Shown here piece after piece: positions 16,022 through 29,965 of a DNA stretch of 32,253 nucleotides; within the stretch, counting starts at the first letter, position 1; every line of letters begins with the position of its first letter. Both the position numbers and the translations under genes were made by a program. The notes below the pieces were generated by a model. That model was not told where the DNA came from. It was given only the letters and a program-made list of their open reading frames with translations, and searched no databases. The DNA comes from Gemmatimonadales bacterium (lineage in GTDB: Bacteria; Gemmatimonadota; Gemmatimonadetes; Gemmatimonadales; Gemmatimonadaceae): NCBI GenBank assembly GCA_038319425.1, contig JBBQDE010000001.1, forward strand, positions 1 through 32,253. The letters are read 5' to 3'.

Positions 16022-16243
16022 TCAGCTCGCGAAGACGACGTCGCCGTCCTCGTCGATCCCGAGCTCCTGCTGCAGCCCGCACACGCCGCAGAGCTTCGTG
16101 GCGATCCAGACCGCCTGCAGCTCGGCGCGGACTGCCTCCGTCGCCGGCTTCACGACGAGCTTCTTGTAGGTGTACTCGCCACAATTCTCGCAGGCGTGAG
16201 CGCGAGCGATCCGCTCCGCCCGCTCGCGGGTGATCGCCGCCAA
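16022..16243 (-). CDS. Small zinc-ribbon-like protein (CxxC ... CxxC), unknown function
   Basis: 73 codons with very high GC3. It has two CxxC pairs (CENC, CGVC). The only in-frame start is TTG 16243, 2 nt after the SPFH stop, which suggests translational coupling. Confidence 0.55.
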   Translation of the reverse strand: MAAITRERAERIARAHACENCGEYTYKKLVVKPATEAVRAELQAVWIATKLCGVCGLQQELGIDEDGDVVFAS

Positions 16244-16245
16244 CG

Positions 16246-17322
16246 TCAGAGGTCCGGCCGCAGCGGATCGGTGCCCGCCGAGAGCTGCGCTGGCGGCGAG
16301 CCGGCCGCGGATGGCGACGAGGAAGGCCCAGGCTGACGCGGCGCCGGATTGCTGTTGCTGCGCGTCAACAGCTCGCGCAAGCCACCGAGCGCGCCCATCA
16401 CCCCAGTCGCTTCGGCCGGCAGGAAGATCGTCGTGCCGGCGCCCTCGGTGATCTTGGGCAGGGCCTCGAGGTACTTGAGGCCGAGGAGGTACATGGCCGC
16501 CTGGCCCTCGGGCAGCGCGGCGGAGATCCTCACGAGCGCGTCGGCCTCGGCTTCGGCCATCGCCGTGCGCGCGGTCGCGAGCCCCTGTGCGCGCAGGATC
16601 GCCGCGTCCTTCTCACCCTCCGCGCGGCGCACCTGGGATTCGCGCACGCCCTCCGCCTCGAGAATAGCGGCACGCTTGCCCGCCTCGGCGTTCGTGACCG
16701 CCGCGCGGCGCTCGCGCTCGGCGCGCATCTGCAGCTCCATCGACTGCTGAATGTCGCGCGGCGGCTCGATCGCCTGGAGCTCGACGCGGGTGAGGTCGAC
16801 GCCCCAGCCAATCGCGGCCTCCTCGATCACCTCGCGCATCCGCGTGTTGATCGCATCGCGGCTGGCGAGCGTGGAGTCGAGCTCCATCTCGCCGACGATG
16901 TTGCGCAGCGTCGTCTTGGTCAGCGTCTCGAGCGCGTACGGGAGGTTCTGCACCGCGTAGGTGGCCTTCTGCGGATCGGCCACGCGATAGTAGACGACGG
17001 CGTCGATGTCGATCGTGACGTTGTCCTTGGTGATGACCGGTTGGCTCGGGAAGTTGAGCACCTGCTCGCGGAGGTCGATGCGATTGGTCGACCCGGCGGT
17101 CACCTTCTTCGTGCCGCCGGGGTCCACCTGGAAGTAGCGCACGTCGATGGACTTCGGCCGCTCGATGTAGGGGACAAGGATGTTGAGGCCGGATCGGGCG
17201 ACGCGGTGGAAGCGGCCGAGCCGCTCGATCACCATCACCTCCGCCTGGCCGATGATCTTGAACGAGGCACGCGCCACTGCGACCAGCAGGGCGACGATGA
17301 TCGCGGCAATTGCGAGACCCAT
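16246..17322 (-). CDS. SPFH/band-7 (stomatin/paraslipin-like) membrane protein
   Basis: N-terminal TM helix, then the SPFH core (VMVIERLGRFHRVARSGLNILVPYIERP, VITKDNV, YYRVADPQKATY). This is followed by an Ala/Glu/Arg coiled coil and a Pro/Ser-rich tail. ATG 17322 has GGAG 5 nt upstream. The track start GTG 17328 is 2 codons longer. Confidence 0.88.
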   Translation of the reverse strand: MGLAIAAIIVALLVAVARASFKIIGQAEVMVIERLGRFHRVARSGLNILVPYIERPKSIDVRYFQVDPGGTKKVTAGSTNRIDLREQVLNFPSQPVITKDNVTIDIDAVVYYRVADPQKATYAVQNLPYALETLTKTTLRNIVGEMELDSTLASRDAINTRMREVIEEAAIGWGVDLTRVELQAIEPPRDIQQSMELQMRAERERRAAVTNAEAGKRAAILEAEGVRESQVRRAEGEKDAAILRAQGLATARTAMAEAEADALVRISAALPEGQAAMYLLGLKYLEALPKITEGAGTTIFLPAEATGVMGALGGLRELLTRSNSNPAPRQPGPSSSPSAAGSPPAQLSAGTDPLRPDL

Positions 17323-17471
17323 GACCACTCCGTCGAGGACTGAGAGATGTTACCGCCGGGTCGGGATGGGGGCAACGCTGACGGAGTCAGACCAGGCGGC
17401 GCAGCCAGAGGGCGATCGCCGATGAGCGTCGTCGCGACGCTCTCACCAACATGGAAGTCTCTCCGGCACGA

Positions 17472-17927
17472 TCAAAAGCGCTCGCCGGCGGCCTCACGAG
17501 CCTGATTGCCAGCCGGGCGGATGCGCGACCACATGTTGTGAAAGAACAGGAGCAAGCCGATGATTTGCGCGGCGCCGGACGCGACGACGAGCCACCGTAG
17601 CCCCAGGGCGTCGCTCCGCGTGCGCGCCAGCTCTCCGATCACCCGCACCAGCGTCCCCGACGCGAGAAGCCAGTACGCCGTCTCGGCCACGGCTGGACGA
17701 TATTGGCTGTCTCCTTTGGCCGGACGCGGGAACATCCACAGGGCGACGCCGAGGATCATCATCATGACGAAACCGACGAGGAGGGCGTGGGTGTGCGCAC
17801 TGACGAGATAGGCGGATTGAATGTGCGCGCCGAGCTCGCGCTGAAGCATCATCCATCCGCCGAGCATCAGTCCGAGCACGAGGAAGAAAATTGCCGTTTT
17901 GAGGTAGCGCCGCACGAGCGACGTCAT
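17472..17927 (-). CDS. 4-TM membrane protein B, mini heme-copper-oxidase-subunit-I-like (paralog of the upstream gene)
   Basis: 151 aa with four predicted TM helices. TM2 carries AHTHALLVGFVMMMILGVALWMFPRP. Its ATG overlaps the upstream stop (ATGA, 17924-17927). High GC3. Confidence 0.75.
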   Translation of the reverse strand: MTSLVRRYLKTAIFFLVLGLMLGGWMMLQRELGAHIQSAYLVSAHTHALLVGFVMMMILGVALWMFPRPAKGDSQYRPAVAETAYWLLASGTLVRVIGELARTRSDALGLRWLVVASGAAQIIGLLLFFHNMWSRIRPAGNQAREAAGERF

Positions 17928-18412
17928 GCCTCACGCGCGGGAAAGGTCGGCAGTGGAGCGCGCGAATGAGCGATGACCGCTTCACGCGCGTGCGCGATCG
18001 CAGCCTGATTGGACGCCGTCCCGTCCACCGTCCGCCAGATGACGTAGACGAAGAGGTACGCGCCGAGCGCCGACAGGCCGCCACCGGCGACGAGAACCTG
18101 GGTGCCCGCAGTGGGCGATGCGGCGCGGAGCACAAACCCCGCCACCAGCAGTGCCAGTCCCACGTTCGAGATCCACCAGTGCCAGCCCGCGATGCGACGG
18201 CTGTGGAGTGGAAATCCCACGAATCGCGGGATGGCGTGGTAGGCGACGCCATAGATCATCATGGTCACGAAGCCGAGGAGCACCATGTGCATGTGGGCGA
18301 CGCGGTGGATCGTCCACGGCGGATAGGCGGCCATCGCGAGCCCGAGGCTGACACCGAGAGCGAGCCAGGCAAGGCTGGCTTTCAGGAAGGCCTTGACGAA
18401 CCAGTCCATCAT
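17924..18412 (-). CDS. 4-TM membrane protein A, mini heme-copper-oxidase-subunit-I-like
   Basis: 162 aa counted from ATG 18412, which shares one nt with the upstream stop (TGATG); the track start at 18442 is 10 codons longer. Four predicted TM helices. TM2 carries AHMHMVLLGFVTMMIYGVAYHAIPRF. This matches the helix pattern H-x-H-x3-LG(W/F)-x6-(F/Y)G-x2-Y-x3-PR that I recall from cbb3 CcoN/FixN and NorB. Confidence 0.75.
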   Translation of the reverse strand: MMDWFVKAFLKASLAWLALGVSLGLAMAAYPPWTIHRVAHMHMVLLGFVTMMIYGVAYHAIPRFVGFPLHSRRIAGWHWWISNVGLALLVAGFVLRAASPTAGTQVLVAGGGLSALGAYLFVYVIWRTVDGTASNQAAIAHAREAVIAHSRAPLPTFPAREA

Positions 18413-18633
18413 CAGTCCGCGACGCCGACCAGTGACGCGCACGCGGACGTCTCGAGCAGCGTGAGCAGGACGCCCAAGTCAGCATGGACGTGCTGCGCCG
18501 CGTCGCGCAGTGTTGAGCTCGCCCGGCAGCACGTGTCCAACCCGAACACGTGAAGGATCGGGGCGGTCGCCGGGTACGTGGTGAGCACTTCGTTGACGGT
18601 GCTGGCCGCGGTGACGTGGACGAAGGGTAACAT
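18412..18633 (-). CDS. Stand-alone ScdA/YtfE (RIC) N-terminal-domain-like protein (DUF542-like)
   Basis: 73 aa. TVNEVLTTYPATAPILHVFGLDTCCRASSTLRDAAQHVHADLGVLLTLLE resembles the RIC N-domain (compare E. coli YtfE ...[20 protein letters not shown]...). It includes the di-Cys motif but has no hemerythrin-like di-iron domain. Confidence 0.6.
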   Translation of the reverse strand: MLPFVHVTAASTVNEVLTTYPATAPILHVFGLDTCCRASSTLRDAAQHVHADLGVLLTLLETSACASLVGVAD

Positions 18634-18663
18634 GGTGTCTTGTTCCTGTTGAGGTCAGTGCGT

Positions 18664-19506
18664 TTAGAGCATCGTCGGGGCCGCCGACCCGGCGGCGCAG
18701 CGAAAGCCCAGACCTGCGACTGTGGAACGCGCGTTGAGTCCGGCGCGTACGGCGGAGCGCATGAACGCGGGATAGTTCGCCGGATCGGCGACGCCGATGG
18801 CGGCGCTGGCGCAGGACACGCGTCGGCCCTGCACCCCGGAACTGCGACCGGCGACGTGCGAAACGTCAGCAGGCATCCCGGCGTTGACGTCGAGCGTCCA
18901 CTCCCAGGCCGAGCCATGGAGGTCGCGCACGCCATAGGTGTTGGCGAGCCCGGACCCAGCGACCGGAAGCGTTGCGGAGACTCGCGCCGCATAAAGCGCG
19001 AGGATGCGACGGCGAAATACCGGATCGGCGCTCGCGTCGCGGCGCGTCTCGCTCGCGGCGGCCACGTACTCCCATTCGTCCAGCGTCGGCAGCCGCTTGC
19101 CGCGCGCGGCGCAAAACGCCTTTGCGGCGAACCATGAGACGCCGGTGACCGGACGCTGAAGCTCGACGCCGGTGCCGGCGTCGAGCGCGCCCGGCCAATC
19201 GACGAGATACGATGCCTCGGCGAAGTTCCGACCAACGCGGCCGCGCTGCCACTGCGGCTGCGCGCGCACGAACGCGAGGAACTCGGCCCGCGTGGCGGGC
19301 TGCCGATCGAGCGCGAACGTCGCCACGCGCACCCGGCCTCCGCCGGACACGGCGTACAGTGGGCGATAGTCGCCGGCGGGAATCGGGACCATCCCGCCGT
19401 CGACGACACGGTGGCCACGAGTTGGGCGACCAATGACCGCCGCCGCCGCCACGATCGGACATGCGACCGTGATGGCGGCGACGAGTGCGATGAGACGCGG
19501 ACGCAT
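18664..19506 (-). CDS. nirV: NirV: formylglycine-generating-enzyme (SUMF1/FGE-sulfatase) family protein
   Basis: 280 aa with a signal peptide. FGE-family motifs: PVTGVSWFAAKAFCAARGKRLPTLDEWEYVA, NTYGVRDLHGSAWEWT, GLGFRCA. It sits directly downstream of nirK, as in known nirK-nirV pairs. Confidence 0.85.
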   Translation of the reverse strand: MRPRLIALVAAITVACPIVAAAAVIGRPTRGHRVVDGGMVPIPAGDYRPLYAVSGGGRVRVATFALDRQPATRAEFLAFVRAQPQWQRGRVGRNFAEASYLVDWPGALDAGTGVELQRPVTGVSWFAAKAFCAARGKRLPTLDEWEYVAAASETRRDASADPVFRRRILALYAARVSATLPVAGSGLANTYGVRDLHGSAWEWTLDVNAGMPADVSHVAGRSSGVQGRRVSCASAAIGVADPANYPAFMRSAVRAGLNARSTVAGLGFRCAAGSAAPTML

Positions 19507-19539
19507 GATGTGCAGTCCTCGGGTCGCGTGGGCGCGCTG

Positions 19540-20796
19540 CTAGCGACTGGCCGGGGTGGACGACGTGACGGCCGCGAATACCCTGCCGTCATCCGGACCG
19601 CTCACGTGGAGCATGCCGAGCGCTCCCTTGTTGAAGGCGCGGAAGATCGAGTGGTCCACGAGAATGAGGTCGCCGGACTTCTCGACGCCGAACTCGACGA
19701 TCGCGGATCCGCCGGCGGGGATGAGGGTAGTCTGGACATTGTGCTGTGTCGCCACGCTGCCGCCCTCCGAGTACACGTTGTCGAACACCTCGCCGATGAC
19801 ATGGAAGGAGCTGGTAAGGTTCGGGCCCGCGTCGCCGACGAACAGGCGAACGCGCTCGCCGACTTTCGCCTGGAGCGCGTGGTCGCCGGTGAGCGCACCG
19901 ACGCTGCCGTTGAACACCACGTAGGTGGGCTTCTCGTCGATGCCCTTCTCCATGTCGAGCGACTGCATGCCCGGGTCGCCGAACTTGCCCGTCGTGTAGA
20001 ACTCGCTCTGCATGACGTAGAACTCGTGGTCGACCTTCGGCAGGCCAGCCCTGGGCTCGACGAGGATCATGCCGTACATCCCGTTGGCCATGTGCATCGG
20101 CACGGGCGAGGTGGCGCAGTGGTAGATGAAGAGGCCTGGATTCATGGCGGAGAAGGTGAAGACCGACTCGTGCCCGGGCAGGGTGAGGGATGCGTGCGCT
20201 CCGCCACCGGGGCCGGTGACGGCATGCAGGTCGATGTTGTGGGGCATCGTGCTGTTCGCCGCGTTCTTCAGGTGGAGCTCGACGAGGTCGCCTTCGCGCA
20301 CGCGAATGAAGGTGCCCGGCACCGAGCCGCCAAAGGTCCACATCGTGTACTGGACGCCGTCGGCGAGACGCATCGCCTTCTCCGTCACCTCGAGATTGAC
20401 GATGACGCGCGTGGCGTGGGTGCGCGTGATGGGCGCCGGCACGTTTGGCGCCGTCGTGAGGACCGCGATCTCCTGCCCGACGATCTTGCCGGACGGGGAG
20501 TGAATCGGCACCACCTGCACCGCATTGAGCTCGGAGGCGTCGGCGGGCATGCCGCAGCCGCCGAGGCTTGCGGCGAGCAGCGCGGCAGCGGCCAGGGCGA
20601 ACGCGAGCCGGATGCGATCACCGCGCGTCACCGCCGCGAGCGAGCGAGGCTCGAGTGGATCGCGCCGAACCAACGGGATCGCCCTGTGAGCGTACATCAG
20701 CTCGGCTGGAGTTGGAGCGAGAGGCACGCGTGCATCATTTTCGGCGTCGAGCAGATATCTGGCGTAGTGCGCGCTATCGGACGTGGAATTGGACAC
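19540..20796 (-). CDS. nirK: Copper-containing nitrite reductase NirK, lipoprotein (AniA-like) type
   Basis: HNIDLHAV supplies a T1 His, the catalytic Asp and a T2 His. [20 protein letters not shown] supplies a T2 His plus T1 C-x7-H-x4-M. Also HVIGEVFD and LVDHS. Lipobox LAASLGG|C. The coordinates give the longest ORF (GTG 20796). The first 55 codons have depressed GC3, and GTG 20631 would give a canonical 26-aa lipoprotein signal peptide, so the true start may be 20631 or ATG 20697. Confidence 0.92.
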
Positions 20797-20862
20797 GGGG
20801 CCCTCGCTGAAAGATGACTTCTCGTCTCCCAGGGAGGATCGGTCCTTTTGGCGGCGGGAGCA

Positions 20863-20914
20863 GTCGGGAAGAAGCCCGAGCGTGTGTCGGGGAACCTGGC
20901 ACCCGTGTGTCGGG
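20863..20914 (-). promoter_or_regulatory. Three direct repeats with a GTCGGG core, phased every 23 nt, upstream of nirK
   Basis: On the plus strand: gcaGTCGGGaag (core 20863-20868), cgtgtGTCGGGga (core 20886-20891) and cgtgtGTCGGGag (core 20909-20914). The two distal copies share the 11-mer CGTGTGTCGGG exactly. They lie 67-118 nt upstream of the longest-ORF start. Confidence 0.5.
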
Positions 20915-20971
20915 AGTTTTCATCCCTGATGCAATGCTCACCCCCGAGGCGATTGGCCGTCTGGCGTGCGC

Positions 20972-21388
20972 CTAGGGTTCAGCACCCCGATGCGCGCGCG
21001 TCGCGAGCTTGCTCAGCGCGCGGATCCATAACACCGAGCTCGCCACGAGTGCACAGTGGAGCCAGTCCCCTCCGCTCAATGCCGCCGTGCCAAGAGCGTG
21101 CTGCAAATACGGCACGTATATCACCGCGACCTGAAGCGCCAGTGACAGCCCGACCGCCCCCCATAGCCACCGATTGCGGAACAGCCCACCGAACGCGCTT
21201 CGCGTGTCGGACCGTGCGTTGAACACGTTGAACAGCTGAAGGAACATGAGCGTCGTGAAGGCCATCGTCTGGGCGTGGCGCATGCTGCCCCTTCCGGCTA
21301 TGAAGCCGCCGGGCAGCGCGACGTCGAGCACGAAGAGCGTCGCGAGGGCCATCACAACTAACACGAGCGCGATACCGCTCCACGCGAA
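20972..21388 (-). pseudogene. 3' remnant of a P2-type cation-transporting P-type ATPase (C-terminal TM domain only)
   Basis: The frame is open for only 138 codons (FAWSGIALVLVVMALATLFVLDVALPGG...TMAFTTLMFLQLFNVFNARSDTRSAF...NRWLWGAVGLSLALQVAVIYVP...DWL). This matches the last TM helices of Ca/Mg-type ATPases. A stop lies immediately upstream (21389-21391), and no A-, P- or N-domain coding is present in any frame up to 21637. Confidence 0.7.
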
Positions 21389-21568
21389 TCACGGTGGCGT
21401 GCGCGGCCGAGATGGCGCGGAGCGCAGCCCCGGCCCACTCCGCGCGGCAGGCGCGGCGCCGGACGTGGGCTGCCTGAGGGCCGAGACGGTCTTCGTCAGG
21501 AGTTGTCCGGACGACGTTCCGTATTTCCGCCTACGGAGTGATGCCGCCGATGCACGTAACCTTCCCCC

Positions 21569-21589
21569 GGTACACTGATGTACCAGTGT
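21569..21589 (+). promoter_or_regulatory. Two interlocked dyads upstream of the tandem-USP gene (operator candidate)
   Basis: GGTACA-ctga-TGTACC (21569-21584) overlaps ACACTG-atgtac-CAGTGT (21572-21589). The site lies 49-69 nt upstream of ATG 21638. Confidence 0.4.
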
Positions 21590-21637
21590 GCGAGATCGCC
21601 TTGGCATCCCGCCACTCCAGCGTAACCAGGAGGTCCG

Positions 21638-22612
21638 ATGTCCACCGATCTTGCCGTCGCTCCCCAGCTTGCCAGCGAGCCGATGCCGCGCGTTCCGCGC
21701 TCGCTCTTCGGGCGCGTGGTGCTGCTGGCCACGGACGGCTCAGCCGCCTCCAACGCGGCAACACGCACCGCGTTTGCGATCGCCGAGCGGCACGGCGCGA
21801 ACGTTCACGTCATCAACGTGATCGACACCCGCTCGGCACCGCTCCCGCCCGGGCTCGACCTCGCGATCGGCATCGCCGATGCCGCCGTCGGCCCGCTGGT
21901 GCATGCCGAGCAGGTCGAGTCGGTGCGCGACGACATCGCGGCCGCCATCGGCGAACCGGTCGACTGGCGGATCCGCGTCGCGCTCGGCACGCCGGCGCGG
22001 GTGATCGTGCAAGAGGCGCACCGACTGCGCGCTGCGCTGGTGATCGTGGGCCTGCGGCGGCATGGACGACTCGAGCGTGCGATGCAGGATGAGACGGCGC
22101 TCGAGGTAATGCGCCGAGCAGCGTGTCCAGTGCTGGGCGTCGCCGCGGACGCCACCGCACTGCCGATCAAGGTGCTCGCTGCGGTGGACTTCAGCCGCTC
22201 GAGTCTGGCGGCAGCCCGCGCCACGCGCGCGGTGCTGGACGATGGCGGCACGATCGTGCTTGCCTACGCACCTCCAGTGACGTTCGCTCTCCCCGATGAT
22301 GGCGAGGCGGTGATTCACAAGCTCGGCGTCGCGGCCGGCTTCGCGCGCTGTCGCGCCGAGCTCGAGGGCGATCGTATCACGATCGATCAGATCACGTTGC
22401 ACGCCCAGTCCTCCACGCCGGTAGCGGCGGCGCTGCTCGAGTACGCCGATGGCGCCCGGTGCGATCTGATTGCGGCCGGCAGCGCGCGACGCGGGCGGCT
22501 GGATCGCTGGATGTTGGGGAGCGTGAGCACGGACCTGGTGCGCGACGGTCGGCATTCCGTGCTGATCGTCCCACCGCGGACGCTCAAGAATGCCGTGACG
22601 CCAACACCCTAG
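21638..22612 (+). CDS. Tandem universal stress protein (two UspA domains)
   Basis: AGGAGG lies 5 nt upstream of the ATG. Domain 1: VVLLATDGSAASNAA...ALVIVGLRRHGRLERAMQDETALEVMRRAACPVLGV. Domain 2: KVLAAVDFSRSS...DLIAAGSARRGRLDRWMLGSVSTDLVRDGRHSVLIVPP. Confidence 0.9.
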   Translation: MSTDLAVAPQLASEPMPRVPRSLFGRVVLLATDGSAASNAATRTAFAIAERHGANVHVINVIDTRSAPLPPGLDLAIGIADAAVGPLVHAEQVESVRDDIAAAIGEPVDWRIRVALGTPARVIVQEAHRLRAALVIVGLRRHGRLERAMQDETALEVMRRAACPVLGVAADATALPIKVLAAVDFSRSSLAAARATRAVLDDGGTIVLAYAPPVTFALPDDGEAVIHKLGVAAGFARCRAELEGDRITIDQITLHAQSSTPVAAALLEYADGARCDLIAAGSARRGRLDRWMLGSVSTDLVRDGRHSVLIVPPRTLKNAVTPTP

Positions 22613-22621
22613 CGCCTCGCG

Positions 22622-22667
22622 CGCTCAAGGTCCGCGTCGCTCAAGTTCCGGCCGTATGACGGCGTCA
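22622..22667 (+). promoter_or_regulatory. Direct 13-mer repeat pair plus an 11-bp palindrome upstream of the lipoprotein gene
   Basis: CGCTCAAGGTCCG (22622-22634) and CGCTCAAGTTCCG (22638-22650) repeat with a 16-nt period. A third CGCTCAAG lies at 22581. The palindrome TGACGgCGTCA is at 22657-22667. All lie 56-101 nt upstream of ATG 22723. Confidence 0.35.
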
Positions 22668-22722
22668 GATCGGACCGCACGGCGCTAATTCATCGGCAGT
22701 AAACGATCCGGAGGGTCGCGAC

Positions 22723-23415
22723 ATGAGACATTCCCTCGTGGCATACACAGCAATCACGCTCGGCGCGGTCGTGTCCTGCCGCGCCGACCGATCCAAAGAA
22801 CCAGAGTTCGCCGTCGCGTTGCAACAGGGAACACCCGCACAGGCGCTGGATGTGGCGCTTGAGCGACCCATGGCGCATCGTCGCGAGGGGCAGGTTCTGC
22901 TGGATAGCGCGCGTGCCGCGCTGGGAACCGGAGACACCATGGCGGCAAGAGCACTGCTGCATCGTGCCGCGTCTTTCTTCGTCATGCAGGCGAACGCGCC
23001 TCCCAGCAGCGGCACGCACGACCTGCTCGCCGTCGCCAGTGGCCTGGACGCGCTGGCGAACGACGTCGGCCGCCGAAGTGTCGAATCGTCCGGCCTCGCA
23101 CGGTTGTCGGCGCACGCGAATCTCGCCGAAGCCGAGCGGCATGGCGCGCTTGCCGCGGTGGCATGGTCACTCGGCAGCAAGGAGTCGATCGCCGACGAAC
23201 TCACCATGGCCGCCGATCACGTGGAGCGGGCCGCGTTGGACGCCAGGATCGAGGTCCCTTCAGCGACTCGGCGCGTGCTCTCTCAACTTCGGGCGATCGC
23301 ATCTGCCCTATCGACGGAGCGTGCGCTCACCGTCCACGAACTCGATGAGCCACTGGCGGGCCTGCACCTGGAGATTCGCGCGTTGCACTGGCGCCTGGAG
23401 CATTCCACATCCTGA
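22723..23415 (+). CDS. All-helical lipoprotein of unknown function
   Basis: GGAGGG lies 8 nt upstream of the ATG. Signal peptide with lipobox LGAVVS|C. 230 aa, Ala/Leu/Arg-rich and helical. I recognise no family. Confidence 0.65.
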   Translation: MRHSLVAYTAITLGAVVSCRADRSKEPEFAVALQQGTPAQALDVALERPMAHRREGQVLLDSARAALGTGDTMAARALLHRAASFFVMQANAPPSSGTHDLLAVASGLDALANDVGRRSVESSGLARLSAHANLAEAERHGALAAVAWSLGSKESIADELTMAADHVERAALDARIEVPSATRRVLSQLRAIASALSTERALTVHELDEPLAGLHLEIRALHWRLEHSTS

Positions 23416-23483
23416 TCGCAGCGCACACGCGCGGCGCCGGGAGGGTGATGCCCTGGTCGTGGTGCGCCGCGATGAACAGGCCG

Positions 23484-24018
23484 TCATGCGACGGCCACCG
23501 GGCTTGGCTTCGCGCGCGTGGCAATCTGCCGAACGGCGTCGCTGACCATACGTTGCGTGCACCCAGTGCGCATATAATCCGCCAAGTACACGGCCGAGCC
23601 AACGCTCCGGCCACGTACAGGGCAGGGCGTAGTCGATGACGACTCGAAGCAGGGACCCGCTCCCGTGAGGCGTCACCTCGAACTGCATTTGGTCCGGACC
23701 GATGACAAGTAGCCTTGGAGAGCCCACGCTTTCCCAAGCTTTCCGGTTGGCGGGTCTCGCCTCGTCACCACCTCGTCCAGAGACAGCTCGAGGCCGAAGG
23801 CCTGGCCGCTCACGCCAATGTGCGATCCCACTCTCTGGCTGCGGCCCTCATCAAGGATGGTCGTCATGCGGCCTCTGCCCATTCGCCACGAACTCTGGCT
23901 CATGTGGGACGAGAGGCTCGTGCACGTCGATGAGGGCGAACACGCGCTCGGGAGACGCTGACACCACCGCACTGCTTTCGTGGTGATGAGGAAATGGTGC
24001 GGGAGTGTGAGGTGTCAC
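23484..24018 (-). pseudogene. SRPBCC (polyketide-cyclase/START-like) family gene disrupted by three frameshifts
   Basis: GTG 24018 has GGAAGGAG 6 nt upstream. Family-like peptide segments are spread over alternating frames:
- HESSAVVSASPERVFALIDVHE (frame of ORF 23851..24543).
- LSSHMSQSSWRMGRGRMTTILDEGRSQRVGSHIGVSGQAFGLELSLDEVVTRRDPP (frame of ORF 23673..23972).
- RKAWESVGSPRLLVIGPDQMQFEVTPHGSGSLLRVVIDYALPCTWPERWLGRVLGGLYAHW (frame of ORF 23308..23727).
- CTQRMVSDAVRQIATRAKPSPVAVA, ending at a stop at 23484.
The shifts fall near 23914-23919, 23745-23750 and 23562-23566. Confidence 0.6.
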
Positions 24019-24095
24019 GTGCAGCTCCTTCCGAGCTATCCGGCGTGTAAGGGGAGGATGACGCGTCGAGTGTCCTGTCGTAAGCGCGCGGCCCC

Positions 24096-24746
24096 TCAAT
24101 GCGTCGGGGAGACCGACTTCGCAGCGCGCTGCGCATTCGGCGCGGCAAGACCGAAGCCGCTCGCGGGCGCCCGCGCTGCTTGCGACGTGGGCGCGAAGTG
24201 CGGCATCGCCACGCGGCGGAGCCACAGCCCGCCGGCCAGGTGCAGCGCTCCGAAGAATACGGCGAAGAAAGCGCCAAGGTACAGCGGCACGAACCTGGGC
24301 ATGTCGGCGAGCAGCGTGACCGACAGGCCGAGCGGGAGGACCGCCGCCGTTACGCCGACGAGCGTCCAGCGCGTGCGCCGCATTGGCCACAGTGCCAGCG
24401 CGAGCGCACCCGTCATGGACCCGTAGAGGATCAACCAGAGAGCGACCAGCGTCATCGCTGTGTTGAGCGGCGTGTATGGCAACCCGATCGTCAGCGCCCC
24501 GAACGCGACGGACGCCGCCCCATGCCCGCTCAGCACGGGCCACGCCCGGAGCGATCGCCGAGCGTGCATGCCGACGAGCACGTCGTACGACCCCGAGAGA
24601 GCGACGAGCGCCCCCGCCACGATCATGGATACTGGCAGCGCAGTTTCCGGCCAGCTGAGCGCGACGATGCCCGACACCGACAGCACCAGGCCGCGGGCAA
24701 GCTGCGAGCGGGAGTACTGATCGAGAGCACGATATGGGCTCAGCAT
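24096..24746 (-). CDS. HdeD-family (DUF308) membrane protein
   Basis: 216 aa with six hydrophobic helices and the usual DUF308 repeat pattern (GLVLSVSGIVAL, MIVAGALVALSGSYDVLVG, ASVAFGALTIGLP, TLVALWLILYG). GGAG lies upstream of the ATG. Confidence 0.7.
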   Translation of the reverse strand: MLSPYRALDQYSRSQLARGLVLSVSGIVALSWPETALPVSMIVAGALVALSGSYDVLVGMHARRSLRAWPVLSGHGAASVAFGALTIGLPYTPLNTAMTLVALWLILYGSMTGALALALWPMRRTRWTLVGVTAAVLPLGLSVTLLADMPRFVPLYLGAFFAVFFGALHLAGGLWLRRVAMPHFAPTSQAARAPASGFGLAAPNAQRAAKSVSPTH

Positions 24747-24816
24747 GACGGAACTCCGGCTACAGTGGAGCGCGTGAGGCCGACCTCACGCGCGCGCCTG
24801 CGACGATACTCGTGGA

Positions 24817-25308
24817 TCAACGCCCTTCCTCGTTCGACCCCGCCGCGGCGCCTACGGGCGCGACGCTGGCGGGCCGCACCTCCGTATGCCGCACCTGACC
24901 GCCGAGGTAGGCGGTGTAGCCCATCACACCGCCGGCACCGACGGCGAGAACGAAGGCGGCCGCGGTTACGCGGCGCGACAGCGCCCGCCCACCGCGGTGC
25001 CACGCCAGCGTGCCGAGTGCCAACGCACCGAGTCCACCGACGATGATGGCCGCATCGAGGGCGGCATCCTCGTGCCGCGCGAGGATGGTCTCCGAGAAGC
25101 CGGGCAACTTCTCGATGAGCCCTTCCGCCGGCTCACCGGTGAAGTACACCGCGACGGTGACCGCGCCAACGAGCACGGCGAGCGCGAGCGACACCTTCCC
25201 CAGCTCGCTGCTGCGGCGATACGCTGCGACGGCCAGAAGCAGCGCGATGATCAGCGTGGCTATCACGGGAAAGTGATTGAGCGCGAGATGGAGATGAGCG
25301 ATGCTCAT
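24817..25308 (-). CDS. DUF2231-like 4-TM membrane protein
   Basis: 163 aa. The N-terminus AHLHLALNHFPVIATLIIALLL resembles the DUF2231 signature, assigned from memory. GTGAGG lies upstream of the ATG. High GC3. Confidence 0.65.
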   Translation of the reverse strand: MSIAHLHLALNHFPVIATLIIALLLAVAAYRRSSELGKVSLALAVLVGAVTVAVYFTGEPAEGLIEKLPGFSETILARHEDAALDAAIIVGGLGALALGTLAWHRGGRALSRRVTAAAFVLAVGAGGVMGYTAYLGGQVRHTEVRPASVAPVGAAAGSNEEGR

Positions 25309-25375
25309 GACGACGCCTCACTGATAGTGGTTCGTGCGTTCCCCTCTAGGATGCGCACCGCCCAGGTCGCGGTCT

Positions 25376-25406
25376 GTCCGGCTGAGTCCTCGCCATGTGT
25401 CGGGAG
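25376..25406 (-). promoter_or_regulatory. Second occurrence of the nirK-type direct repeat (two copies, 23-nt phasing) upstream of the DUF2231 gene
   Basis: catgtGTCGGGag (core 25399-25404) shares the 11-mer TGTGTCGGGAG exactly with the distal nirK copy. ggtctGTCCGGct (core 25376-25381) is a degenerate copy exactly 23 nt away. The orientation relative to the downstream minus-strand gene is the same as at nirK. The site lies 68-98 nt upstream of ATG 25308. Confidence 0.5.
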
Positions 25407-25477
25407 ACTTACTCTCTGTGGTGGCGCCCGGAATTCGGTCCGATTCACCAACGCACAAGTCCGCGCGACGAATGACC

Positions 25478-25891
25478 TCATGGGCGCTCGTCTCGAGCGA
25501 TGACGCTCAGGCGCCCTTGTCCGTCGAGTCGCAACGTCAGTTTCTTCGTGATCGGCACGGGATCCATCTGATCCACCTCGACGCGCACCCTGTCGAGGGC
25601 GATGCGGATAACGGACACGCGCGCGCCCTGCTGAAGCCCTGCGCCGCCGAGCGCACCCAGCCTGGCGGAGTCGACAAGGATACCGGTGAAGCTCACGCCA
25701 ATCGGCAGCTCGTCCAGCGTACCGGGCGCGAGCTTCGCGCCGAGCTGGCCCGCGATCTCGGCGGTGGAGATCTGTCGCGACTGGAGTCGCACCTCACCGC
25801 CGACCTGGGCGGCGGCGGAGTGGGGGCCAAGCGTGAAGGCGATGTAGGCGGCCGCGAGTCCGACGGCGCGCGCGAGACGCATGGCGCTCAT
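25478..25891 (-). CDS. Small secreted protein of unknown function
   Basis: ATG 25891 has GAGGAGG 6 nt upstream; the track start at 26065 adds 58 non-protein-like residues. Signal peptide MSAMRLARAVGLAAAYIAFTLGPHSAAA|Q. 137 aa. Confidence 0.6.
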   Translation of the reverse strand: MSAMRLARAVGLAAAYIAFTLGPHSAAAQVGGEVRLQSRQISTAEIAGQLGAKLAPGTLDELPIGVSFTGILVDSARLGALGGAGLQQGARVSVIRIALDRVRVEVDQMDPVPITKKLTLRLDGQGRLSVIARDERP

Positions 25892-26151
25892 GTGGTCCTC
25901 CTCGACAGGGGTGACATCCCTTCGGGACAAGGATCGCATGGCCGCGCCGTACTGTCTGTAGGGCAGGCACGGACAGGGACGATCATTGCGGTCGTGTCGC
26001 GGCCCTGGTTTTTCACCACCGATGTAAGGTGAAGGCGGACTGCGCTCCCGGAGGCCGTCCTGCATGCTGAAGCCCGGGATCTTCGCCTGCGCGGCGAGAT
26101 CTGCAGTTGGACCACGTGCATCGCTTCAGTGGGGGCACGCGGCCCCGCAAC

Positions 26152-26176
26152 CGCGCGGCCACATCGTGGCCGCGCG
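26152..26176 (+). promoter_or_regulatory. Perfect 25-nt palindrome/hairpin (11-bp GC-rich stem, 3-nt loop) ahead of the DUF2892 gene
   Basis: CGCGCGGCCAC-atc-GTGGCCGCGCG, 38 nt upstream of ATG 26214. It lies in the divergent intergenic region. Confidence 0.45.
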
Positions 26177-26213
26177 CCGCGCCAACCATCACGCCGAAAA
26201 CGAGGGACGACCC

Positions 26214-26426
26214 ATGCTCGCGAAGATTCTGCTCCCCAACATGAGCGCGACGGACCGGATGGCCCGTGTTCTCCTCGGCCTCATCCTGCTCTCGCTCACG
26301 GTGCTCGGTCCGAAGTCCCCGTGGGGATACATCGGGCTCGTGCCGCTCATCACGGGCCTGGTAGGCAGCTGCCTGCTCTACACGGTGCTCGGACGGTCAA
26401 CCCTCCGCCTCGATCGAGCGCACTGA
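26214..26426 (+). CDS. DUF2892 (YgaP-like) small membrane protein
   Basis: 70 aa. TDRMARVLLGLILLSLTVLGPKSPWGYIGLVPLITGLVGSCLLYTVLGRST matches the DUF2892 pattern (DR..R...G......W...G..PL.TG..G.C..Y..LG). GAGGGA lies upstream of the ATG. Confidence 0.75.
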   Translation: MLAKILLPNMSATDRMARVLLGLILLSLTVLGPKSPWGYIGLVPLITGLVGSCLLYTVLGRSTLRLDRAH

Positions 26427-26612
26427 TCGGGGCCGGACGATCGCTACCTGCCGCGCGACGCGATCGCCGTATACCACCCGAGTTTGGTAAGCCCGGGCGC
26501 CGTGTCCACGTTCGCCTGACAGACGGCGGCGTCAAGGACAGACATCCTCAATGGTGCGGAGGAGGCGCATCCGGCGCCACGCGTCGGTGTCGTTCATTCG
26601 GAGGAACCGATT

Positions 26613-27269
26613 ATGAAGACCGATTCGCAGCTACAGCGAGACGTACTGGATCAGCTCACGTGGGAGCCCAGCATCCGAGAGGCCGAGATCGGAGCGGCGG
26701 TGAAGGAGGGCGTGGTCACGCTCTCCGGCTACGTCGACACCTTTGCCGAGAAGTGGGCCACGACACGTGCCGTGGAGCGACTGAACGGGGTGAAGGCGGT
26801 CGCCGACAATCTCGAGGTCAAACTGCCCAGTTCACACGTGCGCTCGGACACGGACATCGCGCACGCCGCGGTGCGGGCACTCGAGTGGGACGTCCAGGTG
26901 CCTCACGACAAGATCAAGATGACCGTCCGCGACGGATGGGTGACCCTCGAAGGCGATGCCGAGTGGCAGTACCAGCAGATCGCCGCCGAGCGGACAGTTC
27001 GCTTCCTGACCGGCGTGATCGGAGTCACCAACCTGATCGCCGTGAAGCCGCGCCATGCGTCGTCGCTCGACGTGAGTGGGAAGATCCACGAGGCACTGCG
27101 CCGCAGCGCCGAGTTCGATGCCGGGCGTATCACGGTCGAGGCGCACGATGGCAGCGTGACTCTCAAGGGGACGGTCCGCTCGTATGCCGAGCGTCGGGAT
27201 GCGGAGCGAGCGGCCTGGGGCGCGCCGGGCGTGACGACGGTGGACGACCGGATTGCCGTGACGATGTGA
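26613..27269 (+). CDS. BON-domain protein (three BON repeats, OsmY-like)
   Basis: GGAGGA lies 7 nt upstream of the ATG. Three repeats: IGAAVKEGVVTLSGYVDTFAEKWATTRAVERLNGVKAVADNLEV, IKMTVRDGWVTLEGDAEWQYQQIAAERTVRFLTGVIGVTNLIAV, and ITVEAHDGSVTLKGTVRSYAERRDAERAAWGAPGVTTVDDRIAV. Confidence 0.88.
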   Translation: MKTDSQLQRDVLDQLTWEPSIREAEIGAAVKEGVVTLSGYVDTFAEKWATTRAVERLNGVKAVADNLEVKLPSSHVRSDTDIAHAAVRALEWDVQVPHDKIKMTVRDGWVTLEGDAEWQYQQIAAERTVRFLTGVIGVTNLIAVKPRHASSLDVSGKIHEALRRSAEFDAGRITVEAHDGSVTLKGTVRSYAERRDAERAAWGAPGVTTVDDRIAVTM

Positions 27270-27284
27270 GCGTAGAGTACTTCG

Positions 27285-27308
27285 CCGGGCCCGCGTGACG
27301 CGGCCCGG
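27285..27308 (+). terminator. GC hairpin after the BON gene
   Basis: CCGGGC(c)CGCG-tga-CGCGGCCCGG: a 10-bp stem with one bulge, 16 nt after the stop. No U-tract. Confidence 0.3.
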
Positions 27309-27510
27309 CGGAGGTGCCGGTCACTGCGGTCGATGACGGCCATCGCCAGTGCCCGCAGATACGGCGGGATCATGACGTTTTCTCCTTCGAGAGTGAAGCC
27401 GCAGTGCCCCGCTCACCTTTCTCAGTCTCGGAACCTCAAGGACACGCGATGACATTCAGTCTCTTTTCCCAATCTCGTCCTCAGTCGCGCGGCACCGCGT
27501 CGGACACGCC

Positions 27511-27897
27511 ATGAGCGCAGAGGAACGGGGACCGGCATCGTCCGGCGAGATCCGCGATGGCGAGGTGTCTGAACCCATTGGGGGCGACGCCTCCCGTACG
27601 ACTACTTCCGATGCGGTCTGGACGGTCGTCGTCGAGCATGCACCGAGTTTTGAACAGAGTGGTGAACAGGGTGGCTCGTATCAGATCATCCAATGCCCAA
27701 ACGACGACTACGCTGTTATGGCCTTGCCAACCTCGATATACCGTCTGGCAGGGGGTGGGGGGACCTTCCGTTGCCCCAGCTGCAATCAGGATTTTGGGGC
27801 ACCCGCGCAGCCCGATCGAACGCATGCCGAAATGGCCCTTCAAGCTCCGCCCCGACGTAGCCGGGAGCGCGTTCCGCCTGGGGCAGGAAACGATTGA
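27511..27897 (+). CDS. Questionable orphan ORF with a Cys-x..-CxxC segment
   Basis: 128 codons in a locally lower-GC stretch (about 27370-27950). The middle part is protein-like (WTVVVEHAPSFEQSGEQGGSYQIIQCPNDDYAVMALPTSIYRLAGGGGTFRCPSCNQDF). However, there is no RBS, GC3 is clearly lower than in neighbouring genes, and I recognise no family. Confidence 0.25.
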   Translation: MSAEERGPASSGEIRDGEVSEPIGGDASRTTTSDAVWTVVVEHAPSFEQSGEQGGSYQIIQCPNDDYAVMALPTSIYRLAGGGGTFRCPSCNQDFGAPAQPDRTHAEMALQAPPRRSRERVPPGAGND

Positions 27898-28036
27898 GCA
27901 CGCGGCCTAGACGCTGTCGGCACGAGCGGACCATGAAAAGACGACGATGCCGTCGGGCGTGATGCCGTCAGGCAAAGCGGGACAGGCGCGCTACGGCGTC
28001 CCGGGTATCGTTGATGTGGCACTGACGGAGGAAAAG

Positions 28037-28978
28037 ATGCGAAGGATTTTAATTGCGACGCATGGTGGCGTATCGGCCGACGGCGCCGTGCGCGTCGCCA
28101 ACGATCTGGCGAAGAAGCTCGGCACGACATTGAGCGCGTTCTGCGTCGTGGAACCGCTTCCGATTATCGACGCGGGATTCGGGGTGCCGTACGTGGAGAC
28201 GCCTGAACTCGAGGAGGCGCGGCGACATGCGTTGCGCGCGGGCGTCGCGGCGCAGCTGGCGCGGTGCGGGGTAACCGCCCCCATCCGAACGACAATGGGA
28301 TCCGCGGCGACGGAAATCGCCGCCGCCGCACGGAGCGCCGGCGCGGAGTTGATCGTGCTCGGCATCGGACCGCATAAATTGCTCGACCGCGCGCTCGGCC
28401 ACGAGACGGCGCTCCAGCTTGTACAGAGCGCCAGCACGCCTGTGCTGGCCGTCGCGGCCGGTGCCGTCGCCGCGCCGGGCCACGTGCTCGTAGCGATGGA
28501 TTTCTCACCGACGAGTTTTCTGAGCGCGCGCATGATCGCGCGCTGGATGCGTGCCGGCGACACGTTTCATGTGGTGCACGTGGCGCACTTCCGTGACAAC
28601 CCGATGCACGGCGAGCTCGATCAGGTGCGCGCGACCGCGGCGCTCGCCAGATCGCTCGACGCCATCGTTGCCGATCTCGCGATCCAGGACGGCGTGATCG
28701 TGGGAACGACGGTCGTCGTCGGCGAGCCGGCGCAAATGGTGCTCGAACTCGCCGTCCGGGTAGGCGCGGACCTGGTCGCGACCGGAAGTCACGGCTATGG
28801 CATCTGGAAACGACTCACGTTGGGCAGCGTCGCATCGAAGATCCTGCGGCTCTCCTCGCAGTCGGTCCTCGTGACGCCGATCGGCAGTCTTGGAACGCTT
28901 GAGCTCACCGCGCCGACTGTCGCGTCGGTTCCGCGTCCCGTCTCGCGCGAGGACGCCCGCGTGAGCACGGTAGCATAA
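28037..28978 (+). CDS. Tandem universal stress protein (two UspA domains), paralog of 21638..22612
   Basis: ATG 28037 has GGAGG 6 nt upstream; the track start at 27947 is 30 codons longer. Domain 1: RILIATHGGVSADGAVRVA...ELIVLGIGPHKLLDRALGHETALQLVQSASTPVLAV. Domain 2: HVLVAMDFSPTS...DLVATGSHGYGIWKRLTLGSVASKILRLSSQSVLVTP. Confidence 0.9.
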   Translation: MRRILIATHGGVSADGAVRVANDLAKKLGTTLSAFCVVEPLPIIDAGFGVPYVETPELEEARRHALRAGVAAQLARCGVTAPIRTTMGSAATEIAAAARSAGAELIVLGIGPHKLLDRALGHETALQLVQSASTPVLAVAAGAVAAPGHVLVAMDFSPTSFLSARMIARWMRAGDTFHVVHVAHFRDNPMHGELDQVRATAALARSLDAIVADLAIQDGVIVGTTVVVGEPAQMVLELAVRVGADLVATGSHGYGIWKRLTLGSVASKILRLSSQSVLVTPIGSLGTLELTAPTVASVPRPVSREDARVSTVA

Positions 28979-29101
28979 GAGAGCAACGCAACCGGTCGCA
29001 GCGGGCGTCCGGCTGCGCCTGCCGCGTAGCCGGCGTCGGGAGATGTCCTAACAAAATCGCGTACACTTTCCGACTGCCGAGCGGGCATCCGTCACGGAGC
29101 T

Positions 29102-29117
29102 TCCATGCAGGCATGGA
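29102..29117 (+). promoter_or_regulatory. 6-4-6 dyad TCCATG-cagg-CATGGA upstream of the response-regulator gene
   Basis: Perfect 6-bp arms, 35-50 nt upstream of ATG 29152. The arm/spacer geometry is the same as the GGTACA-N4-TGTACC dyad at 21569. Confidence 0.35.
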
Positions 29118-29151
29118 GTCCGGGGTTCCCGCTCGACAGGAGGAGGGTCCG

Positions 29152-29931: not shown

Positions 29932-29965
29932 CGAGGCTCGTACCGACGAGCGGCGGTCGAGGAAG

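Follow-up and report, generated by a model that had tools for sequence, protein, structure and literature searches.

What could a copper nitrite reductase operon gain from two short membrane proteins that resemble pieces of a respiratory oxidase? This question is raised by a locus of a Gemmatimonadales bacterium (GenBank assembly GCA_038319425.1), located at positions 17472-20796 of a 32,253-nt stretch of contig JBBQDE010000001.1 that was analysed as a whole and is hereafter called the window. Downstream of nirK and nirV, this locus encodes a 73-aa protein restricted to an ScdA_N-type domain, followed by two proteins with four transmembrane segments (4-TM), named here A and B. An earlier reading of the DNA letters and their translations (the original prediction) had taken A and B for a pair of proteins resembling heme-copper oxidases (HCO), and the whole for an unusual extension of a nirK-nirV unit. 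We conclude that the tail genes encode a split, single-repeat NnrS/HCO-like pair together with an ScdA_N-type partner, and that this module is common in the nir and nos clusters of Gemmatimonadota and systematically mis-annotated.

Organization of the nirK operon

According to the list of open reading frames (ORFs), the unit is composed of five minus-strand genes, which are given here with the stretch upstream of them.

20797-20971, minus strand: upstream non-coding stretch, presumed operon promoter by position only
19540-20796, minus strand: nirK, copper nitrite reductase, predicted lipoprotein; longest ORF 418 aa; TIGR02376
18664-19506, minus strand: nirV, 280 aa, FGE-sulfatase domain, signal-like hydrophobic N-terminal segment
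18412-18633, minus strand: stand-alone protein of the ScdA_N/DUF1858 superfamily, 73 aa, no signal peptide, D-T-C-C motif
17924-18412, minus strand: protein A, 162 aa, 4-TM, single-repeat NnrS/HCO-like, His-x-His (HxH) motif H40/H42
17472-17927, minus strand: protein B, 151 aa, 4-TM, paralogue of A, HxH motif H45/H47

First, we confirmed in the sequence the five genes and each of the junctions that had been described before. The stop codon of nirK (TAG, 19542-19540) is followed after a gap of 33 nt by the ATG of nirV (19506), and that of nirV (TAA, 18666-18664) after 30 nt by the ATG of the ScdA_N gene (18633). The latter gene and A have one base in common within a TGATG (TGA 18414-18412, ATG 18412-18410), and the stop codon of A (TGA, 17926-17924) is overlapped by the ATG of B (17927-17925) in a 4-nt ATGA. 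Both the 1-nt and the 4-nt overlap were found again in the gene calls of all the ScdA_N-A-B loci that were inspected (L001, L003, L004, L008, L097 and L098). As the overlaps recur in every one of these orthologous loci, the packing of the three tail genes is conserved and not accidental. The longest ORF of A opens at GTG 18442; homologues of A are 161-162 aa long and begin with ME/MDWFVKAF, and ATG 18412 is therefore its true start. The G+C content at third codon positions (GC3) of the operon ORFs is 0.80-0.88, with 0.80-0.81 for A and B, and the neighbouring genes are alike. A promoter and terminator scan found no sigma-70-like promoter and no convincing terminator inside the five-gene unit. 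We infer that the five genes are co-transcribed and that the tail genes are translationally coupled.

The two leading genes are of known families. NirK reaches 352.9 bits with the equivalog model TIGR02376 (cutoff 296.3), and both the Cu-oxidase_3 and the Cu-oxidase_2 domains are present. Its start is uncertain within 20631-20796: GTG 20796 gives 418 aa, orthologues are called at 371-374 aa, and the true start is probably downstream, at ATG 20697, TTG 20673 or GTG 20631, in which case the upstream non-coding stretch would reach about 20631. The protein has a lipobox (LGGC) whose Cys is residue 81 of the long ORF. The product of the second gene, which lies directly downstream of nirK, matches FGE-sulfatase (PF03781) at 92.1 bits against a threshold of 23.3 and is thus a NirV. 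The same nirK-nirV pair is found in L005, L008, L097 and many further loci, and one survey reported NirV in about 61 % of NirK genomes (PMC4770552). Altogether, profile searches bore out the family guesses that had been made for all five genes.

Proteins A and B as single repeats of an NnrS-type fold

A and B are paralogues that share 32 % identity over their full length. Neither reaches the gathering score of the Pfam families to which they come close: COX1 (PF00115) gives 34.3 bits for A (model positions 343-398) and 33.9 bits for B, both slightly below the required 34.8, and DUF2871 (PF11070) gives 17.6 and 18.0 bits against 27.4. Pfam NnrS (PF05940) has no match to A or B at E <= 0.1, and some B homologues match it weakly (19.7-24 bits against 28).

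The relationship becomes apparent with longer proteins. A search of cluster representatives (50 % identity) with B retrieved 661 clusters, 203 of them at E <= 1e-10 and mostly of 140-155 aa, together with proteins of 450-580 aa that match B in three stretches. These 12-TM proteins pass the gathering score of Pfam NnrS (44-60 bits) and also match COX1. When compared with them by hhalign, the B family gave 98.7 % (E = 2.4e-16) and the A family 98.4 %, values that mark both as homologues. Moreover, a hidden Markov model (HMM) of the mini-family covers each of the three 4-TM repeats of the 12-TM relatives over nearly its whole length, with independent E-values (computed with Z = 1e6) of 1e-21 to 1e-9 for repeats 1 and 3 and of 5e-9 to 0.23 for repeat 2; over the three repeats, most values lie within 1e-21 to 1e-7. 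Because of these hhalign scores and of the HMM match to all three repeats, we identify A and B, by their sequences, as independent proteins that each correspond to one repeat of the NnrS-type 12-TM fold, a fold with kinship to oxidase subunit I. Of the repeats of the 12-TM relatives, the first has an HxH and the other two have one His each; A and B each have an HxH. A search of the PDB with one NnrS-like protein found no solved relative. A 166-aa CopD protein was also considered as a third repeat unit and was rejected, having no match to the family HMM.

The kinship with oxidases is concentrated on the helices that hold the hemes. A phmmer search of PDB sequences with A retrieved only CcoN chains of cbb3 oxidases (residues 327-393, E = 1e-7), and a profile of 51 family members matched CcoN 309-413 (E = 4e-7) and aa3 COX1 346-478 (E = 2e-4). 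The AHMHMV of A aligns with GHVHAG of CcoN, whose two His, in helix X, are ligands of heme b3 and heme b, and in the alignments with CcoN and aa3 COX1 both A and B have the helix-X His-x-His of HCO subunit I. These residues are H40 (18295-18293) and H42 (18289-18287) in A, and H45 (17795-17793) and H47 (17789-17787) in B. H40 and H42 are invariant among A homologues, in which H59, H78 and R96 are also conserved, and in 51 diverse family members the HxH (H45/H47), R95, E99 and Q121 are at least 90 % conserved. The HCO-like pair with conserved histidines of the original prediction is thereby upheld; an unrelated family with variable histidines, which would have spoken against it, is not what the profile searches returned. 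We also noted that H59, H70 and H78 of A (region 18179-18295) align with His residues of CcoN TM10-11 and are missing from B.

AlphaFold2 models of A (pLDDT, the predicted local distance difference test, 80.5) and B (79.6) consist of four long helices and a short C-terminal helix, and not of the twelve TM segments of NnrS. In Foldseek, the top matches of the A model were CcoN chains only, with a probability of 1.00 and a root-mean-square deviation of about 3.5 Å over about 107 columns. The distribution of positive charges favours a predicted topology in which the N- and C-termini of both proteins are cytoplasmic and the HxH lies where TM2 reaches the periplasm. TM3 has a conserved Arg at its end on the same side, which may be the partner of a heme propionate. 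TM2 is rich in Met, with AHMHMV..TMM in A and MMM in B. The C-terminal tail of B (17472-17540) carries the pattern W-x-R-I-R-P-x-G-x-x-x-R-E-x-x-G-E-R-F, which is invariant in 46 relatives and recognisable in Ignavibacteria-like members; this suggests that the predicted cytoplasmic tail is a docking peptide for some partner.

With four TM segments, no CuB ligands and a score below threshold, the A/B module is, as judged from sequence, not a heme-copper oxidase, and by score it is not a Pfam NnrS or DUF2871 protein either; it is a superfamily relative of all three.

The small ScdA_N-type protein

The 73-aa protein matches ScdA_N at 29.7 bits, slightly below the gathering score of 32.5, with orthologues reaching up to 46 bits, and it has weaker matches to DUF1858 and to TIGR03980 ("hybrid cluster protein-associated redox disulfide domain"). 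In seven aligned orthologues, A7, D33, C35 and C36 (codons of C35/C36 at 18531-18526) are invariant, and so is the D-T/A-C-C motif to which three of them belong, as in the N-domain of RIC proteins. The protein, which has no signal peptide, is presumed to be cytoplasmic. The RIC equivalog models match only its first 55 or so positions, at 19-22.6 bits against cutoffs of 204-259, and the hemerythrin-like di-iron domain that forms the C-terminal part of RIC was matched by no scanned ORF of the window. As it lacks this di-iron domain, the ScdA_N-only protein is not a RIC.

Three lines of evidence connect this small protein to the membrane module. First, a C-terminal DUF1858 domain is present in three of five 12-TM NnrS-like relatives, one of which also has an N-terminal copy, and the small proteins are related to these fused domains by hhalign (96.9 %, E = 1.8e-10). 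The relation is visible only when profiles are compared: pairwise BLASTP of the 73-aa protein with one NnrS-DUF1858 fusion gave no match, and the fused domains have no Cys pair. In a 12-TM protein whose N-terminus is cytoplasmic, the C-terminus lies on the same side, which places the fused C-terminal domain in the cytoplasm. Second, the ScdA_N gene is probably coupled to A in translation. Third, among 80 Gemmatimonadota loci, an ScdA_N gene occurs in 23 of the 36 with A and in 5 of the 44 without A. This superfamily-level fusion (a "Rosetta stone"), the coupling and the co-occurrence counts suggest that the small protein acts at the cytoplasmic face of the A/B membrane module.

Distribution and gene neighbourhoods

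In a database clustered at 90 %, the homologues number more than 1005 for A and more than 1736 for B, the top matches being 63-88 % identical and mostly from Gemmatimonadota metagenome-assembled genomes (MAGs). Their source name is "cbb3-type cytochrome c oxidase subunit I", which is a misnomer, and occasionally, in the names that JGI gives to some B homologues, "uncharacterized protein involved in response to NO" (nitric oxide). A scan of GTDB species genomes yielded at least 408 loci with B relatives, and the best 80 of the 408 are all from Gemmatimonadota.

For B, the genes within 6.5 kb were surveyed by tblastn in the 48 of these best 80 loci that have 3 kb or more of sequence to either side. 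A nir or nos gene of any kind was present in 27/48 (56 %), NirK in 21/48, A in 21, Cupin_2 in 18, ScdA_N in 17, Crp/Fnr in 8 and Rrf2 in 6. A second census covered 33 A-centred loci of at least 3 kb on metagenome contigs: nir or nos genes were found in 24/33 (73 %), B in 21, NirK and Cupin_2 in 18 each, ScdA_N in 16 and SCO1 in 14. By our own estimate, where nirK is present once or twice in 4-5 Mb of genome, a 13-kb segment taken by chance would contain it in well under 1 % of cases, so that the enrichment is large. Homologues of the tail genes are thus strongly enriched beside nirK, nirV, nos and nor genes in two phyla, as the original prediction required of a neighbourhood survey.

Two further points need correction after this comparison. 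The extension of nirK-nirV is not unusual for its lineage: the operon is standard in Gemmatimonadota, with the general form [Rrf2]-nirK-nirV-[SCO1]-[ScdA_N]-[Cupin_2]-A-[CopD]-B, and the exact gene order of the window occurs again in L008, L159 and L162. Nor do A and B form an obligate pair, each being found also alone beside nirK or nos genes. Further arrangements include nirK-B without A, ScdA_N-B, and ScdA_N-A-B convergent with a nos cluster of clade II type. Some loci, L005 and L170 among them, have a CopD gene that separates A from B. A gene for a plastocyanin-like cupredoxin, then A, end the nos clusters of L123, L137, L142 and L146, and the same order is seen in L001. Other loci, such as L016, L022, L037, L139 and L142, have the A and B genes next to nirK and nos genes or between the two. 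In L097, the nearest relative (A 84 % identical), nirV is parted from the ScdA_N gene by a SCO1/SenC gene (L097 9175-9750). At this place only 30 nt are present in the window (18634-18663), and the copper-chaperone gene is absent from its operon.

Several loci illustrate other surroundings. In L047, L049, L050, L051 and L014, a Crp/Fnr gene is divergent from a solitary B-type gene, which is followed by genes for a 74-aa DUF3565 protein and for a conserved 174-aa protein without Pfam match. An Ignavibacteria-like genome has the order Crp/Fnr, mini protein, ferredoxin, NorB and Cupin_2. In Ignavibacterium album (L092 4606-7456), an insert between nosF and nosY encodes a DrpB-like protein (DUF1858 and two DUF2249), a 422-aa protein that is a divergent triplicated COX1/NnrS-like relative, a DUF59 protein, a 151-aa mini protein and a DoxX protein. 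Rrf2, two hemerythrins and nrfHA come after nosY, so that this nos cluster is unusually rich in NO-related genes.

Possible function of the module

What the module does can be addressed through its closest full-length relative. NnrS binds heme b and copper. We favour, tentatively and with somewhat less than even confidence, the idea that the tail genes encode a small NnrS-like membrane module, divided over two chains, that carries heme (and possibly copper), has the Cys-Cys protein as its cytoplasmic partner and acts on the NO that comes from the lipoprotein NirK. A and B would assemble as a hetero-oligomer in which the separate repeats rebuild an NnrS-like 12-TM architecture. The HxH pairs, at helix-X ligand positions, together with the periplasmic Arg of TM3, would hold heme of b type, perhaps along with copper as in NnrS, in sites located at subunit interfaces, between TM2 helices, near the outer membrane face. 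The membrane-anchored NirK would release NO at this outer face, NO would partition into the membrane, and the module would bind it and then buffer or transform it, in analogy with the protection of cells from NO by NnrS. The ScdA_N partner would link the module to the cytoplasm, a homologous domain being fused to the cytoplasmic C-terminus of full-length relatives. Finally, NirV, and SCO1 or CopD in sister operons, may serve copper loading.

A number of points weigh against this proposal. The biochemical function of NnrS is itself unsettled, so that a likeness to NnrS gives the mechanism little to rest on. By the repeat logic, three units would be expected; the operon has two, and many loci have only A or only B. 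A and B are below Pfam gathering for COX1, NnrS and DUF2871. Foldseek with the B model was uninformative, giving only generic helical bundles (all E > 0.2); for B, the sequence profiles are the stronger line of evidence. In Lentisphaeria and two other lineages, members of the family stand alone, without genes of N-oxide metabolism around them. The many copper proteins among the neighbours (NirK, NosZ, SCO1, CopD, cupredoxin) suit the rival explanations just as well. Lastly, regulators of the Rrf2 or Crp type are missing from the window, and a search upstream of nirK revealed no operator of NO type.

On this last point, the scans of window ORFs detected neither a nor gene nor a canonical nnrS, and no regulator of the Rrf2 or Crp/Fnr families, in agreement with the earlier statement that norB/norC and regulators of the NnrR/NsrR type are absent from the window. 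The accompanying claim that the window has no nnrS is right for a canonical gene and misleading beyond it, A and B being single-repeat NnrS relatives. Two NarL-type response regulators are encoded in the window. Rrf2 or Crp/Fnr genes are adjacent in several sister loci and not in the window, and the Rrf2 neighbours are not assignable to NsrR, only the superfamily model being passed. Neither a TTG-N8-CAA box nor a shared palindrome was found in 29 orthologous nirK upstream regions, and the nirK upstream stretch of the window has no sigma-70 consensus, FNR box, shared palindrome or Rfam element. Only weak inverted repeats are present at 20600-21700, and an Rfam scan of the whole window returned two tRNAs only. 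In L029, L038 and L043 only, a TTCTCAT-N6-ATGAGAA palindrome that is absent from the window lies upstream of nirK; two of these loci have Rrf2 beside nirK, and the palindrome may be an Rrf2 operator.

A different role, which we consider unlikely but worth keeping in view, would be that of a small membrane cytochrome b passing electrons from the quinol pool or another complex to NirK and NosZ, directly or via the adjacent cupredoxin. The predicted position of the His ligands near the periplasmic side, as at the low-spin heme sites of HCO, would suit it, and so would the location of A directly after the plastocyanin-like cupredoxin that ends nos clusters (L123, L137, L142, L146 and L001). Moreover, no other dedicated membrane electron-transfer gene was found in the inspected stretches of Gemmatimonadota nos clusters, and the module accompanies both copper reductases. 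However, no quinol-site motif was identified in A or B, NnrS relatives are not known as electron carriers, and nirK operons elsewhere run on generic cytochrome c or cupredoxin donors. Electron delivery would also leave the cytoplasmic ScdA_N partner, the adjacency of Rrf2/Crp genes and the NorB context unexplained.

The abundance of copper proteins among the neighbours raises the question of cofactor maturation, in which A and B, along with NirV, SCO1, CopD and the cupin, would form a copper (or heme) route that loads NirK and NosZ; the HxH and the Met-rich TM2 would then conduct metal instead of binding heme. SCO1/SenC between nirV and ScdA_N in L097, the presence of SCO1 in 14 of the 33 A-centred loci, CopD between A and B (L005, L170 and others) and the Met-rich TM2 of both proteins are consistent with such a route. 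We nevertheless judge it, as a whole, quite improbable: the HxH aligns precisely with HCO heme ligands, and CcoN too has Met residues nearby. Moreover, NorB is not a copper enzyme, solitary members are found beside Crp/Fnr with no copper enzyme near, and the window keeps A and B although it has neither SCO1 nor CopD.

Could the module itself reduce NO? It would then be a novel NO reductase, a single-repeat HCO-like oligomer with a heme/non-heme metal centre that converts NO to N2O and connects NirK with NosZ in Gemmatimonadota without norB. The superfamily of A and B includes all respiratory NO reductases, His, Glu and Gln are conserved at equal membrane depth, and the genes stand between or beside nirK and nos genes (L016, L022, L037, L139, L142). 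Among the more than 400 Gemmatimonadota MAGs of one survey, nirK and nosZ were widespread, and none had a complete denitrification pathway (PMC10581226). Yet the CuB/FeB ligand set (the His of helix VI and the His-His of helix VII) is absent, and in the Ignavibacteria-like locus the mini protein stands beside a canonical NorB, for which it is thus no substitute there. NnrS, for its part, reportedly does not remove NO. We regard this reading as very unlikely. An equally speculative extension of it is that the unit once triplicated into the 12-TM core survives in A and B as single repeats. As homo- or hetero-trimers with a catalytic heme/metal centre that consumes NO, these would carry out an unrecognised NO-reducing step between NirK and NosZ. 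If true, such trimers would supply the step that is missing in soil Gemmatimonadota, which have nirK and nosZ and no complete pathway (PMC10581226).

Finally, that A and B have no dedicated link to denitrification, being decayed oxidase fragments or generic membrane-protein hitch-hikers, as scores slightly below the COX1 gathering, the source name of oxidase subunit I and some solitary family members might suggest, is hardly credible, and the idea of decay was rejected in view of their constant lengths (151 and 161-162 aa), their 60-88 % identity over hundreds of species, a GC3 of 0.80-0.81 like that of the neighbours, conserved start/stop overlaps and synteny, invariant motifs and the recurrence beside nir, nos and nor genes.

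Surroundings of the operon

Beside nirK, the upstream flank is marked by a broken P-type ATPase gene. A Cation_ATPase_C fragment (20972-21364, minus strand) adjoins nirK, and an E1-E2_ATPase N-terminal fragment (30006-30926, minus strand) is found 8.6 kb away, next to genes for Pyridox_ox_2 and a NarL-type regulator. In the syntenic L008, the corresponding order is regulator, Pyridox_ox_2, a 627-aa ATPase and nirK. The middle part of the ATPase gene seems to have been replaced by an island (21365-30005 between the fragments). The inserted island (21638-29931) encodes two tandem-Usp proteins, DUF308 and DUF2231 proteins, a protein with three BON domains and a NarL-type response regulator, a gene set that resembles hypoxia/dormancy regulons of the DosR type, and the same island flanks nirK in L097. 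On the other side, a gap of 143 nt separates B from a pair made up of an SPFH/Band_7 gene and an ORF for 73 aa, four of them Cys (16022-17328, minus strand). This pair is also present in L008, where it is parted from B by two Ser/Thr kinase genes absent from the window.

Significance

We searched the literature for 4-TM COX1/NnrS-like proteins in nir or nos clusters and found no description, a result of incomplete coverage that amounts to absence of evidence only. Gemmatimonadota rank with the most abundant soil carriers of nosZ and nirK, and a mis-annotated module affects the genome-based reading of their NO and N2O metabolism. In particular, counts of oxidases should leave out the thousands of entries of 150-160 aa that are named "cbb3-type cytochrome c oxidase subunit I". 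What NnrS does has been an open question since 2002. Divided into subunits of 150 aa, with only four to six candidate ligand residues and a cytoplasmic partner, the NnrS-like module would be a much simpler object for spectroscopy, mutagenesis and structure determination. Furthermore, the family is sequence-level evidence that the 12-TM NnrS-type core arose by triplication of a 4-TM unit, and its free-standing units allow tests of how the pseudo-threefold core of heme-copper oxidases may have come together. The arrangement, which is not singular to the window, thus offers a compact and widespread way into both the NnrS question and the origin of the pseudo-threefold oxidase core.

Comparison with known systems

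The operon is like the nirK-nirV unit of Rhodobacter sphaeroides and other Proteobacteria and Bacteroidetes in that a gene with an FGE-sulfatase domain follows nirK. It differs from it by the addition of ScdA_N, A and B and by a NirK that is a predicted lipoprotein, and sister loci further add SCO1, Cupin_2 and CopD.

RIC proteins (RIC/ScdA/YtfE), which are members of nitrosative-stress regulons (PMC1274295, PMC9052748), resemble the 73-aa protein in the ScdA_N domain, whose model it matches slightly below the gathering score, and in the D-x-C-C motif. While their function is defined by a di-iron hemerythrin-like domain, the protein of the window is without it, a stand-alone N-domain whose gene is probably coupled in translation to that of a membrane protein. 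Closer in setting are two DUF1858 proteins. In Bradyrhizobium, bsl7085, which encodes a small DUF1858 protein beside nnrR and nirK, shows a 29-fold drop in an nnrR mutant (PMC6710368), and in Thermus, DrpB (DUF1858 and two DUF2249) is a cytoplasmic, membrane-associated regulator of nitrate respiration (PMC6282519). Both have a domain homologous to that of the window protein (hhalign 96.9 % with the DUF1858 domains fused to NnrS-like proteins), are small or membrane-associated in the cytoplasm, and are encoded with nitrate or nitrite respiration genes under control of the Dnr/NnrR type (PMC6282519, PMC6710368). However, DrpB has two DUF2249 domains and no Cys-Cys motif, and no membrane partner is described for DrpB or bsl7085, unlike the setting of the window protein beside A and B.

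As regards A and B, DUF2871 proteins (about 134 aa, uncharacterised) are of the same size class and 4-TM topology. Distant B-family members reach 26.7 bits with this model, and NCBI names one of them "DUF2871 family protein"; no assigned function or link to denitrification was found for DUF2871 in the papers retrieved. In heme-copper oxidases, TM9-12 of cbb3 CcoN (PDB 3mk7, 8smr, 9g6b) match A and B in sequence, and A also in predicted fold, over helices IX-XII, and the two His of the HxH fall on the proximal ligand of the high-spin heme and on one ligand of the low-spin heme. Subunit I is, however, built of three arcs of four helices, where A and B have one. It has the helix-II His and the CuB/FeB ligands of helices VI (His) and VII (His-His), whereas A and B have none of these and no HH pair. 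Moreover, it is accompanied by subunits II and III or by CcoO/CcoP, and no gene for these is near A and B.

It is NnrS that comes nearest, the closest full-length relatives of B being 12-TM proteins above the NnrS gathering score. NnrS and the A/B module also have a genomic theme in common, that of denitrification or NO-stress genes with Rrf2 or Crp regulators. They differ in their build: NnrS is a single 12-TM chain, with histidines distributed 2+1+1 over the repeats of NnrS-like proteins, while A and B are two paralogous 4-TM subunits of one repeat each, with an HxH in every subunit.

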